64,000 nt of DNA from Candidatus Latescibacterota bacterium (GTDB lineage: Bacteria; Latescibacterota; CBDEFO01). Position numbers: made by a program. The stretch covers positions 2,432,001-2,496,000 of the forward strand of contig OZ252149.1 of the NCBI GenBank assembly GCA_965248755.1. The letters are read 5' to 3'. How positions within the stretch are numbered: the first letter of the stretch is position 1; the number at the start of each line of letters is the position of its first letter. Of the stretch, positions 27,001-30,000 are shown one piece after another.

Positions 27001-30000
27001 TAGCCAGGGCTACGAAGAAATTTGAGAAGGAGGCTCTGAAAGCAGGTCTTAAGTATTATCTGTAACTCAACTAATATCCAAGACTTAGTACGGGGGTATT
27101 TATTTTCTGAATTTTTCTGAAAGAATTTAACGGTTTAATGTGACTATCTAAGTGAAGGCCCAATATATCAGGTAACAGCGTTGATGGTAATGACGCTTGA
27201 GGAAGTAGAGGTCTTCTCGTTGGACATTCCTGGTTCATAATCCGGAGGTAAGTAGTATGTCCAGTCCACCTGTTTACTGATGTGTCGTATTGTGAGTTTC
27301 GAAGACGACGATACGACACCTGATCAACTCAAGGTATTCTTCATCCTACGTTTAGGATTAGATTAGAAATCAGCTTGTAGGACTTGTAGGGTAGGATACC
27401 AGAATCGATGTCACCCAGGGTTATTCAGCAAGCAGTCCTGAACTTGAAGTAGCGCTACACTTGCCGCAGTGCTGAACTTGTTGGATCGCAACATCTGGGA
27501 AGACTGAATAACCCTGGGTAGTATGTCTTACAGATTAGGTGAACTGCTTTCATAATCTGGAGGTAAGCAGTATGTCCAGTCCACGTGTTTACTGATGTGT
27601 CGTATTGTGAGTTTCGAAGACGACGATACGACACCTGATCAACTCAAGGTATTCTTCACCCTACGTTTAGGATTAGATTAGAAATCAGCCTGTAGGGCTT
27701 GTAGTAGGGTAGGATACCAGAATCAATGTCATCCAGCGGTTATTCAACAACCAGTGCTGAACTTGAAGCAGTGCTACACTTGACGCGGTGATGAACTTGA
27801 GGCAGTGCTGAACTTGAAGCAGTGCTGAACTTGAAGCAGTGCTACACTTGCCGCGGTGCTGAACTTGAGGCAGTGCTGAACTTGTTGGATCGCAACATCT
27901 GAGAAGACTGAATAACCCTGGGTAGTATGTCTTACAGATTAGGTGAACTGCTTTCATAATCTGGAGGTAAGCAGTATGTCCAGTCCACGTGTTTACTGAT
28001 GTGTCGTATTGTGAGTTTCGAAGACGACGATACGACACCTGATCAACTCAAGGTATTCTTCACCCTACGTTTAGGATTAGATTAGAAATCAGCCTGTAGG
28101 GCTTGTAGTAGGGTAGGATACCAGAATCAATGTCATCCAGTGGTTATTCAACAACCAGTGCTGAACTTGAAGCAGTGCTACACTTGACGCGGTGATGAAC
28201 TTGAGGCAGTGCTGAACTTGTTGGATCGCAACATCTGAGAAGACTGAATAACCCTGGGTAGTATGTCTTACAGATTAGGTGAACTGGTAAACGGGTGTGA
28301 ACGGGAATGTCCGGTATAATGAGCCCCCTGCGAAACGTAGGGGGCTCTTATTTTGGATGCGATCAATAACACAAAGAATAACCTTACGAAGAAATACTAC
28401 TACGCTGTGAACAGTGTGAGGGGAAATTAAAAACAGGTCCAGCAGAAGATCAGGTTAAACCTTCTTTAACAAAAGCTCACAGAGTATTGAATACAAAGCC
28501 TGTCAGACATCAATGACGGGCTTTCCTTTTTGGGCATTTACAAGAGTGCTCACTTTAACCAAAGTGAGTAGTTTGCACTGGTTTTGAACCGAGAAAGTTT
28601 TATTGACATCCACTATTTTCTTTGTTATCTTCTTTAGAAAGTTTGTACAGTCTGTAGATAATCCCCACAAACCTTATGATAATTATGACTTAACAGCATA
28701 ATATTTTTGATATTACAGGTTTTCTCTTAATATTTCAGTGGGGTGTCTTCGATGCGTTCCAAATCCCGTATTCTGCTCTCGAGCGGGAGCACGAAGTATT
28801 GGATCACTGAAGTGGCAAAAGCGGGGATCGGGACCATTATCCGAGGTGGAGTGGCAATGGGTGAACCGGGTGTAGGCTCAGGCAGTGCCGAGCTTTGGCA
28901 GAAGTTTGACGAAGCGAAGATAGACGAATTACGTGAGGAAGGCGAAAGCCGCACAGCGTTCATGCTGCGTTTTACCCTTACACATCCCCAAATAGACACT
29001 ATCATTGTGGGCACGCAGCAACTCGAACACCTGCAGGGAAACACAAGAACTGTTCTGCGAGGTCCCCTACCTCCAGATGTTTATCTGGAAGCGAAGCGTC
29101 GCCTGGATGGTGTCAATTTGACATCGGCGGAGGTGTCATGATTATGCATAGTGTTTCACAAGGCTAGCTGGATAAGATTTTGACGGGGTACCAAATTGAA
29201 ATAGGACAAGGACTGGGATCCCAAAAAGTTTGCCGAAATCAAACAGGTTTGCAGGTAGGAAGAAAATTCTTATGGGAACTAACTTTTTAAGCCACATTTG
29301 GGCCTAATGATCCATTTATACATTTTTATCTTTTTTCTCTATGCCTTGGTGTCTATCGTCTGCCCCTTATCAGATTCGGCGGATTGTGGGCTCAAAGCGG
29401 TGTTATTCTGTTCTTCATCTTCTGAGTCTTGGGACTCATCTTTGTGCTGATGTTCTTCCGACAATAGGAGCTTGTCTTTTTCTTGGCGCCTTTTCTTATC
29501 TTTGTCTATCTGGGATTCCTTAGACTTAGAAGTTGCAACCGCTTTTTTGCGATTTGCCTCGGCGTTTTTTTGAAGCAGTTCCGCAAATTGCTTTTGGTTT
29601 GCGTCCGGCTGCTGCCTTTGCACATCGACCATCTTTTCCACGATCTGGGTCTTGGAAAGGATGTTCTGAATATCTATTGAATCGGCCATCGGACGACCAC
29701 CACCTTATAAAAGAAATAGGACGAAGAACAGGAGTCAAGCCTATATCTGTACTTACATCTAACATCCGAAGCATCTTTAGTCTCTTTTAAAGGATGGAGA
29801 TAGGGATAGTTCAAGCTGACTTGTTCTACTCTTATTATCGGAAGAACCGTCCTGAATCTTTAATAATCTGTGCCCAGCTAGGTAAAAGGAGAGGGAACCT
29901 TAATGGCTCCCATCTGGTATTTGTAATGACCAAAGAAAAAGCCCGCCATCTCTGACGGGCTGTGAATTCAAGGCTCACTGTTGAGAAGCCTATGCCGACT

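Follow-up and report, generated by a model that had tools for sequence, protein, structure and literature searches.

A tandem array with seven-codon reading frames in a Latescibacterota genome is a candidate gene for a large structured RNA

Introduction

Among described systems, mccA of microcin C offers the closest comparison to the locus analyzed here. Its frame is reported to have seven, rarely eight, codons behind a strong Shine-Dalgarno sequence and to be re-translated without release of the ribosome (PMC6495379), and mccA RNA is described as ribosome-bound and unusually stable (PMC4231749). We analyzed a 64,000-nt stretch of a Candidatus Latescibacterota bacterium genome (contig OZ252149.1, positions 2,432,001 to 2,496,000 of the forward strand; hereafter the window, in whose coordinates features are given unless stated otherwise) that contains an array of tandem units in which, as in mccA, a 7-codon frame follows a strong Shine-Dalgarno sequence and has a hairpin close behind. 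The array differs from mccA in that this hairpin lacks a U tract, the frame sits inside a tandem unit of ~300 nt, and the last residue is Tyr, whereas MccA ends in Asn and adjoins the ThiF-type protein MccB. The one ThiF match (PF00899) in the genome (3139030-3139737) is about 680 kb from the array, and none was found among the ORFs scanned around it. A precursor gene of the microcin C type was rejected, as the C-terminal Asn and a neighboring MccB are both missing.

The array also shares features with other bacterial RNAs and repeats. Like the tandem sibling small RNAs (NsiR1 of Nostoc, PrrF1/F2), it consists of near-identical structured copies that lie head to tail between genes and are restricted to a lineage. 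Those copies are 60-150 nt long and each has its own promoter and terminator, whereas the array has bodies of 283-403 nt with a single terminator in common and a head-tail helix around them. Like SgrS/SgrT, RNAIII/hld and SR1/SR1P, the array combines a structured RNA with a ribosome-binding site and a short frame, but the peptides of these dual-function small RNAs have 26-43 residues and are conserved as proteins, while the array frame has 7 codons and no coding signature. A modular, foldable repeat with variable short subunits between two pairing arms recalls the BOX elements of Streptococcus pneumoniae (boxA-boxB(n)-boxC), which are scattered in more than a hundred copies, unlike the array, which is found at two loci only and shows no sign of mobility. 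Finally, RNAs with paired 5' and 3' ends, such as B. subtilis hbs, likewise join their first and last segments in a long-range helix, but the helix of the array would span repeated non-coding bodies of up to 1.1 kb in total. To our knowledge, Latescibacterota have no cultured members and no characterized regulatory RNA.

Results

Array A occupies 27171-28354 on the + strand and consists of three tandem units of 376, 404 and 336 nt (27171-27546, 27547-27950 and 27951-28286), a tail and an intrinsic terminator. These borders were set by sequence reading, Tandem Repeats Finder and manual dissection; Tandem Repeats Finder reported a period of 404 with 98% matches and 17-nt repeat tracts of 3.0, 7.8 and 3.8 copies in the three units. 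The unit sizes bear out a preliminary description of this locus, which had given tandem units of 315-404 nt. Arrays of this kind are modular: between a head and a tail, which pair with each other in two co-varying types, lie one to three bodies. The head of array A (27171-27232) contains two small hairpins followed by GUUGGACAUUCCUGG, the 5' strand of the head-tail helix. Body A1 (type I; 27233-27546) carries a Shine-Dalgarno sequence (27244-27249), a mini-ORF (27257-27280; MSSPPVY), a hairpin (27282-27319), a core hairpin (27333-27400) and a long stem (27413-27519) that encloses three 17-nt repeats, followed by an invariant 3' block. Body A2 (also type I; 27547-27950) has its mini-ORF at 27572-27595 (MSSPRVY) and its 7.8 repeat copies at 27752-27884. 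In body A3 (27951-28286), the mini-ORF (27976-27999) again reads MSSPRVY and the repeat tract (28156-28220) has fewer copies than that of A2, from which A3 differs neither in the codon 5-6 hot spot described below nor in the 274 ungapped columns outside it. The tail (28287-28320) supplies GAACGGGAAUGUCCGG, the 3' strand of the head-tail helix, and the terminator (28321-28354) is made up of a hairpin (28321-28347) with a 12-bp stem containing nine G-C pairs and a T run, TTATTTT. The same hairpin closes all three known arrays, one terminator per array on the + strand, confirming the earlier proposal that the array ends in an intrinsic terminator.

The longest ORF within the array stretch comprises 117 aa, runs on the - strand and spans the 17-nt repeats, in agreement with the statement that no ORF exceeds 120 aa. 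A second statement, that the two arrays of this genome are its longest gene-free stretches, was not reproduced by a crude measure: the twelve longest stretches without an ORF of at least 100 aa (1399-3096 nt) leave out both arrays because chance ORFs cross them. Upstream of the head, a conserved segment (27109-27170, + strand) is a candidate for the array's own promoter. These 62 nt carry one substitution relative to the paralogous locus, and the 43 nt just 3' of the sigma factor stop codon carry four; in the sister species the last ~37 nt of the segment are kept and are located behind an inserted multi-copy element. Weak matches to sigma-70-like promoters (CTTACA-18-CATAAT, 9/12) also occur at the body junctions 27527-27556 and 27931-27960, in a phylum whose promoter type may differ.

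Two genes precede array A on the + strand. The product of the GNAT acetyltransferase gene (25664-26359; 231 aa) matches Pfam Acetyltransf_1 (2.1e-13) and has only weak matches in NCBIfam, all under cut-off; the gene contains a perfect internal tandem duplication of 87 bp (26161-26335), and a 68% identical paralogue is present elsewhere in both species. The second gene (26538-27065) had been described as encoding a 175-aa region-4 protein. Its product proved to be a full ECF-type sigma factor, with TIGR02937 matching residues 27-165 (57.1 bits; cut-off 42.9) and further matches to Pfam Sigma70_r4_2 and, in the PDB, to ECF sigma factors. Its dN/dS relative to the paralogue is 0.32. When it was used as bait, full-length identity did not exceed 34% at the 24 loci retrieved from genome contigs or the 26 from metagenome contigs, where higher values came only from short region-4 segments. 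Within the phylum, identity reached at most 38%. The motif TGAAAC-N15-CGTAA (26468-26493, + strand), 45 nt upstream of the sigma start codon, has six matches genome-wide, three of them preceding the three sigma copies, and we presume that it acts as a promoter, assuming an ECF pattern of -35 AAC and -10 CGT. A stand-alone Lrp/AsnC-type ligand-binding domain protein is also present in the cassette.

The arrangement first reported, with arrays directly behind the sigma and GNAT genes, holds at the two loci of this genome (G000). However, a third, identical copy of the GNAT and sigma genes (18964-20362) has no array, and the sister species (G001) has an array while both genes are absent; the link of the array to these genes is not obligatory. 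The paralogous array in G000 has four units (contig C1, 2311164-2309925, - strand) and the array of the sister species has three (C8:543705-544814). Eight units contain the mini-ORF, hairpin and core that had been ascribed to every full unit, but paralogue units B3 and B4 lack all three through a deletion between AGAATGT repeats. The array is known from these two close species, with two loci in G000, and lies in a region full of recent duplications (17 bp, 87 bp, 178 bp, about 300-400 bp, 2342 bp and 6700 bp). The sister species lacks most of window 14000-33000.

Orthologous units differ at 12/274 and 10/274 columns, flanking third codon positions at 3.4%, and stretches outside long ORFs at 4.35%. 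Since the units diverge at about the local neutral rate, most of the body shows no clear purifying selection. Comparison of the paralogous loci revealed two changes in the 62 nt of the head and none in the 36 nt from the Shine-Dalgarno sequence to codon 4, at a sigma dS of 0.106. One column (GGATACC or GGATACT) is uniform within each species.

Each intact unit carries GGAGGT, 7 nt (8 nt counted from GGAGG), and ATG TCC AGT CCA NNN NNN TAC TGA, and a 12-bp hairpin begins one base 3' of the stop codon; the three units of array A agree in this with the preliminary description of a ribosome-binding site and a 7-codon MSSPxxY mini-ORF followed by a hairpin. The 3' end of the 16S rRNA has CCUCC, and the mean unpaired probability near the starts is 0.41-0.54 in the eight intact units, 0.29-0.34 in B3 and B4, and 0.32-0.34 overall. 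By our own count, GGAGG followed by ATG and an ORF of at most 10 codons occurs at 427 sites in the genome. Codons 5-6 of the eight mini-ORFs encode PV, RV, RV, PV, WD, PV, GD and PD, with Pro at position 5 written with three codons and Val with two, and the last codon is TAC (Tyr) in all eight. The frame of 7 codons is kept in seven of the eight, and no unit has an indel inside it. Across 10-11 units, the mini-ORF is lost or altered in about 3-4: the stop is lost in C2 (TCA), C3 has Arg in place of Ser3 and an extra base after the stop, and the frame is gone from B3 and B4.

The six columns of codons 5-6 form a hot spot, with 9 parsimony steps compared to about 0.18 per column elsewhere (permutation P 0.005), and change about eight times faster than the rest of the unit. 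In our own reading of the six hexamer forms, ~3 of the 9 hot-spot changes are synonymous; as this is about a third, the pattern does not point to a peptide. Six of the eight units also contain a 28-codon ORF (MCRIVSFEDDD...) that starts at an AUG overlapping the stop of the mini-ORF (UGAUG) and would encode an acidic product (mean hydropathy -0.05 to 0.27). We rejected it as a gene: its start is lost in B1, it is frame-shifted in C3 and its stop is lost in C2, and by eye 2 of about 11 changes are synonymous and most are non-synonymous.

The 404-nt unit folds at -129.2 kcal/mol on the + strand (z -2.40 relative to shuffles) and at -102.4 kcal/mol on the - strand (z -0.74). The + strand folds 27 kcal/mol better and is the only one to stand out from shuffles, a bias that stems from G-U pairs, which only RNA can use. 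Of the z values given previously (-2.4 for the + strand, -1.9 for the - strand), our rerun recovered the first but not the second. The head-tail helix comprises 14-17 bp and comes in two co-varying types. In six of six genes, each taken as a head with its bodies and tail, the head-tail duplex reaches -17.4 to -22.7 kcal/mol (array A, -22.6 kcal/mol). Type-b heads pair with type-b tails at -20.4 to -25.0 kcal/mol, versus -16.3 to -18.4 kcal/mol with type-a tails; type-b tails fit type-b heads better by about 2-9 kcal/mol, and head and tail types are matched in five of the six genes. In place of the head-tail helix, the start region can pair with the head (-9.5 to -13.2 kcal/mol), and the mini-ORF hexamer also extends or weakens alternative RNA helices. 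The segment GGACAUUCC is predicted to take part in the head-tail helix.

Outside the hot spot, 18/173 paired columns are variable compared to 21/101 unpaired columns (Fisher P 0.02). Predicted stems thus vary half as often, a contrast that leans towards the consensus structure, which was derived from the same eight sequences. By our own count, 13 of 23 variable pairs are still paired (P 0.019 against an assumed chance of 1/3), and co-variation within bodies was no better than in shuffles, 134 of 500 of which reach the observed values. Together, the terminators, the strand-biased folding, the head-tail types and the stem/loop contrast support the part of the preliminary description that proposed a multi-unit, structured transcript of the + strand.

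When one unit was compared by BLAST with 168 genomes of the phylum, matches were confined to G000 and G001, apart from a single chance match of 38 nt. A covariance model of the hairpin and core (141 positions) gave five matches in G000, three in G001 and none in the other 149 of the 151 genomes sampled, and an exact 20-mer of the invariant 3' block matched neither metagenome nor viral contigs. Elsewhere in its own genome, the best match to the unit had an E of 0.012 over 30 nt. No Rfam 15 family matched at gathering score across the window; the best sub-threshold matches to the array were to mir-2041 (26.3 and 23.5 bits, cut-off 70), as expected from the earlier report that Rfam gives only far-sub-threshold matches. 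Among the best-matching papers (12 of 12 and 15 of 246), titles and abstract openings revealed no described equivalent of the array. Several known classes were considered and set aside. A tRNA/tmRNA-like or T-box element was rejected on 0 ARAGORN genes in window 26000-29000 and a blank Rfam result, and a CsrB/RsmZ-type sponge on 8 GGA, counted by eye, in the 376 nt of A1 versus ~6 expected from composition and none in the 17-nt repeat; CsrA is encoded in the genome. Type I toxin-antitoxin repeats such as Ldr/Rdl and Ibs/Sib have a conserved hydrophobic toxin ORF of about 18-60 codons, while the only recurrent ORF here, that of 28 codons, is acidic and not hydrophobic. A leader-peptide attenuator was discarded for want of codon runs, of a U tract after the hairpin and of a gene before the terminator at 28321.

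Discussion

As predicted from its sequence, the array is probably an undescribed RNA gene. The specific reading that we tentatively favor, and would rate a little short of an even chance, is that a large structured + strand RNA is encoded here by a gene restricted to the genus and amplified in tandem, with the mini-ORF serving as a ribosome landing pad. Such a gene would open with the conserved upstream segment and a head, continue with one to three bodies and a tail pairing with the head, and be followed by the next head or the terminator; array A would be one such gene with three bodies. Transcription would start at the conserved pre-head segment, or at the ECF-type promoter before the sigma gene with run-on into the array, and would end at 28321-28354. 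In each body, the strong Shine-Dalgarno sequence, the 7-codon frame and the hairpin one base on would form the landing pad, and a ribosome sitting on or cycling over the short frame may protect and remodel the RNA, as in mccA. The RNA, not the peptide, would be the main product, and the 17-nt repeats may merely lengthen one arm. We infer transcription, ribosome binding and any cellular role from these features. An unconstrained landing pad fails to account for the fast change at codons 5-6. Set in a unit that otherwise changes slowly, this hot spot is the only feature for which selection or a local mutation process must be invoked.

An unlikely but still serious alternative is neutral amplification, in which unequal recombination in an accessory region prone to duplication would have multiplied either one ancestral small transcription unit or the 3' end of the sigma operon, leaving a multi-unit form with variable repeat numbers and most of the sequence without function of its own. 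The duplications of 17 bp to 6700 bp around the array, the identity of A2 and A3 in 274 ungapped columns and the hot spot, the tolerated deletion derivatives B3 and B4, the near-neutral divergence of orthologous units, the absence of most of window 14000-33000 from the sister species and the lack of any relative found outside the genus are all consistent with this process. It accounts less well for the retention of the array in both species and at two loci, the matched head and tail types, the lower variability of stems than of loops, and a pre-head segment and 5' part better conserved than sigma synonymous sites, and neutral drift does not produce a six-base hot spot. The hot spot (permutation P 0.005) fits a reading to which we give somewhat less weight again, in which each body is a separately translated, re-iteratively read gene for fMet-Ser-Ser-Pro-x-x-Tyr, with the RNA scaffold stabilizing the message and keeping the ribosome cycling. 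Positions 5-6 would be kept different between units so that a few distinct peptides are made, which may be signals, inhibitors or enzyme substrates and might be acetylated by the neighboring GNAT protein. A strong Shine-Dalgarno sequence at good spacing from an AUG, the 7-codon length in seven of eight units without indels, Pro5 written with three codons and Val with two, and hexamers that differ within one array despite a sign of homogenization (GGATACC/GGATACT, uniform per species) argue for it, and seven codons behind a strong Shine-Dalgarno sequence are described as the conserved mccA design (PMC6495379). However, the synonymous share of the hot-spot changes (~3/9) is that expected without coding constraint, the frame is damaged in C2 and C3 and lost in B3 and B4, and a Shine-Dalgarno sequence with a tiny ORF is common by chance (427 sites). 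Genes of the ThiF/MccB or radical SAM type and exporter genes are missing from the 40 kb examined, neither the GNAT nor the sigma gene is present in the sister species, and the hexamer also affects alternative RNA helices. The preliminary claim that the units exist to make a set of MSSPxxY heptapeptides is not supported by these data.

We consider three further readings improbable, to increasing degrees. A translation-sensing, leader-like device, the least improbable of them, would use ribosome pausing at codons 5-6 (Pro, Arg, Trp, Gly, Val, Asp) to decide whether the post-stop hairpin forms, each unit reporting a different charged tRNA. As the stop lies one base before the 12-bp hairpin, a terminating ribosome must open its 5' arm, and pairing of the start region with the head (-9.5 to -13.2 kcal/mol) competes with the head-tail helix; the Lrp/AsnC-type protein of the cassette would also suit such a device. 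However, regulatory codon runs are missing, the hairpin is not followed by a U tract, the units and the terminator have no gene between them, and two units are without the frame. It is more doubtful still that the array acts as DNA, with the 17-bp repeats, each containing TGAACTTG, which resembles an ECF -35 box, binding the neighboring sigma factor or another DNA-binding protein. The repeat does contain GAAC, the core of ECF -35 boxes, and the array adjoins an ECF sigma gene in G000, but a promoter-like partner (AAC-N14-18-CGT) was not found in array A, the 17-bp period does not match the helical repeat, folding is strand-biased owing to G-U pairs that only RNA can use, and the repeats persist in the sister species, where the sigma gene is missing. 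The 12-nt core, allowing one mismatch, has 22 sites outside the arrays, about the estimated chance number, and a regulon for the 17-nt motif was rejected on this count. Least credible of all is that UGA is read as selenocysteine by means of the following hairpin to give 12-residue selenopeptides, MSSPxxYUCVVL. The genome encodes tRNA-Sec, SelA and SelB as well as a SelD whose gene contains an in-frame TGA, and the G that opens the hairpin loop lies 17 nt 3' of the UGA, a distance that fits the loose limits for bacterial SECIS elements. Against this, no Rfam SECIS family matched at E up to 5, the hairpin is A-U rich and does not resemble the G-C rich SelD element found in this genome, and B1 carries an altered extension and C3 a frame-shifted one, while C2 has a Ser codon, not Cys, in place of the UGA.

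If transcribed, as the favored structured RNA gene would be, the array would represent an unusually large modular bacterial RNA with several bodies of 300-400 nt, each with a landing site, and one closing head-tail helix. If silent, it is an example of how a recombination-prone accessory region builds functional-looking repeats, and if it did encode heptapeptides, it would amount to a mini-library, genetically encoded within an RNA scaffold, of peptides that are translated directly, a gene organization not described before. An explanation of the hot spot would tell whether seven-codon frames beyond the microcin C family can encode working peptides. Short-read contigs break inside the repeats, and contigs from four read runs contained fragments of the array only. 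One read-run contig was joined across units and may represent a collapsed repeat. The runs of a second study show hexamers already seen in G001.

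Arrays consist of head, body and tail modules

The sigma factor gene beside the array ends at 27065, and the stretch behind it contains no credible gene; its longest ORF (117 aa, - strand) crosses 17-nt repeats. Tandem Repeats Finder identified a 404-nt period (98% identity) and three arrays of the 17-nt repeat, with 3.0, 7.8 and 3.8 copies. We cut this array (array A) at the invariant block ending ...TACAGATTAGGTGAACTG, which placed unit A1 at 27171-27546, A2 at 27547-27950 and A3 at 27951-28286, with a 34-nt tail directly after A3 and a terminator at 28321-28354, all on the + strand. 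The genome has a second array (array B; - strand, contig positions 2311164-2309925) of units B1-B4, and the one other species of the family compared, the sister species G001, has a single array (array C) of units C1-C3. By the crude measure of having no ORF of at least 100 aa on either strand, other 1.4-1.75-kb stretches of contig C1 (e.g., 1086575-1088326, 2092920-2094622 and 3194016-3195638) exceed the arrays in length.

We observed that the arrays are modular and not plain repeats of one unit. A 62-nt head, made of two small hairpins followed by GUUGGACAUUCCUGG, is present only at the starts of A1, B1, B3, B4, C1 and C3, and a tail (..GUGAACGGGAAUGUCC..) is found only ahead of the next head or of the terminator, so that each head-tail gene encloses one to three of the repeated bodies. 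Array A runs from a head through three bodies to a tail and the terminator; the first genes of arrays B and C have two bodies each, the second gene of array C has one, and two further genes in array B have one shortened body apiece.

Head and tail can form a helix of 14-17 pairs (-17.4 to -22.7 kcal/mol across the six cognate pairs). Both occur in two types that differ by, among others, a compensating U-A versus C-G change: with type-b tails, type-b heads pair at -20.4 to -25.0 kcal/mol, and with type-a tails at only -16.3 to -18.4 kcal/mol. The types are matched in five of the six genes, the mismatch being B3. This co-variation is a hint at the helix rather than proof of it, because it reflects a single evolutionary event.

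Folding and divergence of the units

The predicted folding energy of the 404-nt unit is -129.2 kcal/mol on the + strand (z -2.40, matched by 3 of 100 shuffles) and -102.4 kcal/mol on the - strand (z -0.74, matched by 23 of 100). RNAalifold predicts 90 pairs in 11 helices for eight bodies: a small hairpin between the Shine-Dalgarno (SD) sequence and codons 2-3 of the 7-codon mini-ORF, a 12-bp hairpin after its stop, a core hairpin of 15+13 pairs, as well as the long stem and a pair of long-range helices that involve the invariant 3' block. Co-variation within the bodies was not significant (one compensatory pair, a result equaled by 134 of 500 shuffles). With codons 5-6 excluded, 18 of 173 paired and 21 of 101 unpaired columns are variable (P 0.02), and by our own count 13 of 23 variable pairs still pair; both figures lean on a structure that was itself predicted from these sequences.

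Little separates the two species: identity is 97% in the flanks, and divergence is 3.4% at third codon positions and 4.35% in stretches outside long ORFs. Orthologous bodies differ at 12/274 (B1-C1) and 10/274 (B2-C2) positions, which is about the local neutral rate, so the "almost invariant core" of the preliminary description is no sign of constraint. When the two loci of this genome are compared (sigma dS 0.106, dN/dS 0.32; GNAT dS 0.083), the 62 nt ahead of the head show 1 change, the head 2/62 and the segment from SD to codon 4 0/36; on the dS scale these parts are well kept. Hairpin plus core (9/138) and long stem (9/134) fall only slightly under the synonymous rate.

The mini-ORF and its variable codons

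In all eight full units GGAGGT is followed after 7 nt by ATG TCC AGT CCA NNN NNN TAC, except that C3 has AGA in place of AGT and one additional base after the stop; the stop is TGA in seven units and TCA in C2. B3 and B4 keep SD and ATG and have lost codon 2 through the foot of the long stem by a deletion between two AGAATGT repeats.

Codons 5-6 take six forms (CCTGTT, CGTGTT, CCCGTC, TGGGAC, GGTGAC and CCGGAC). On a neighbor-joining tree of the eight bodies these six columns require 9 parsimony steps, compared with 0.175 steps per column in the other 274 ungapped columns, and the best six-column window reaches this value in 0.5% of column permutations. By eye, ~3 of these 9 steps leave the amino acid unchanged (CCT/CCC/CCG and GTT/GTC), the share that such codons would show in the absence of coding constraint. 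Pro-Val is indeed kept through two synonymous changes, as previously pointed out, but other units offset this. At the RNA level, the initial bases of the hexamer extend or shorten a helix with the invariant 3' block, and in one body class (type II) GAC and the following U are complementary to AGUC in codons 3-4 and could pair with it. One column is uniform within each species (GGATACC in 5/5 bodies here, GGATACT in 3/3 in G001); units are therefore homogenized within a genome, and against this background it is notable that one array retains different hexamers.

Translation is favored by the CCUCC in the 16S rRNA tail, by the six-base SD match at good spacing, and by the openness of the start region (0.41-0.54 in the eight units with an intact mini-ORF versus an RNA average of 0.32-0.34), whereas the deleted B3 and B4 (0.29-0.34) do not rise above that average. 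Against it, the frequency of an ATG 5-10 nt after GGAGG (0.106) barely exceeds that after scrambled pentamers (0.086-0.098), and 427 such sites open frames of at most 10 codons; the possibility that a single founder unit arose by chance is therefore not negligible. Among tested precedents the nearest is mccA, also 7 codons with a strong SD, whose message is re-translated without ribosome release (PMC6495379), ribosome-bound and very stable (PMC4231749). The mini-ORFs are not members of this group, because C-terminal Asn and a neighboring MccB, both features of mccA, are missing.

We tentatively propose, with somewhat less than even confidence, that the array is a putative structured RNA gene, amplified, restricted to the genus and read on the + strand, in which the mini-ORF would serve as a ribosome landing pad. 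Among the alternatives, which together leave a little of the probability unassigned, neutral amplification is an unlikely competitor. That the bodies encode a true set of heptapeptides, as originally suggested, we consider rather improbable; around the array we saw no ThiF/MccB, radical SAM or transporter gene suiting a peptide pathway. A translation-sensing device is very unlikely, and there is only a slim chance that the array acts as DNA for protein binding. Selenopeptides are the most far-fetched reading, even with the machinery present in the organism: tRNA-Sec, SelA, SelB and a SelD gene lie at 2906382-2906479, 2784209-2785219, 1709636-1709776 and 4363007-4363930 of contig C1, and SelD has an in-frame TGA at 4363037, so the genome uses selenocysteine.

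Genomic surroundings of array A

The 175-aa protein beside array A is a full ECF-type sigma factor. TGAAAC-N15-CGTAA, a candidate autoregulated ECF promoter, precedes all three sigma copies (26468-26493 for this gene) and has six matches genome-wide. The cassette comprises a stand-alone Lrp/AsnC-type ligand-binding (RAM-domain) protein, an MpsC/DUF2294 protein, the GNAT acetyltransferase and the sigma factor; a third, identical GNAT-sigma pair lies at 18964-20362 without an array. No homolog of the array-A sigma factor above 31% identity was found in G001, or above 38% in other genomes of the phylum, and for the GNAT of the cassette G001 has only the 68% paralog. In G001 a 1.5-kb multi-copy element, reaching ~37 nt ahead of the head, replaces the cassette. 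Most of the 19 kb at 14000-33000 is absent from G001, with the gene for a large serine recombinase upstream of it (8046-9290, - strand); this segment is likely an accessory island, and array A thus belongs to an accessory, rearranging region.

Cassette amplification is visible at 17979-21218 (2342-bp period), where a sigma 3'-end fragment precedes the first cassette (17979-18020); a second copy, 99.7% identical, lies at a distance of 6700 bp (18865-20362 and 25564-27062). Both local GNAT copies contain a perfect 87-bp tandem duplication in their 3' end (26161-26335 and 19461-19635) that adds 29 residues; the GNAT of the paralogous locus has none and matches over 196 residues only. The ~358 bp at 22177-22535 match >35 places in G001 at ~91% identity and probably belong to a small mobile element. 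A 178-bp tandem duplication (99% identity) occupies 16943-17298, and the starts of two response-regulator genes have a 93-nt stretch in common (22095-22187 and 24997-25089; 90%). Further along, 39488-46274 (- strand) encodes three proteins with cohesin, dockerin and type IX secretion sorting domains; NHL propellers occur in two of the three.
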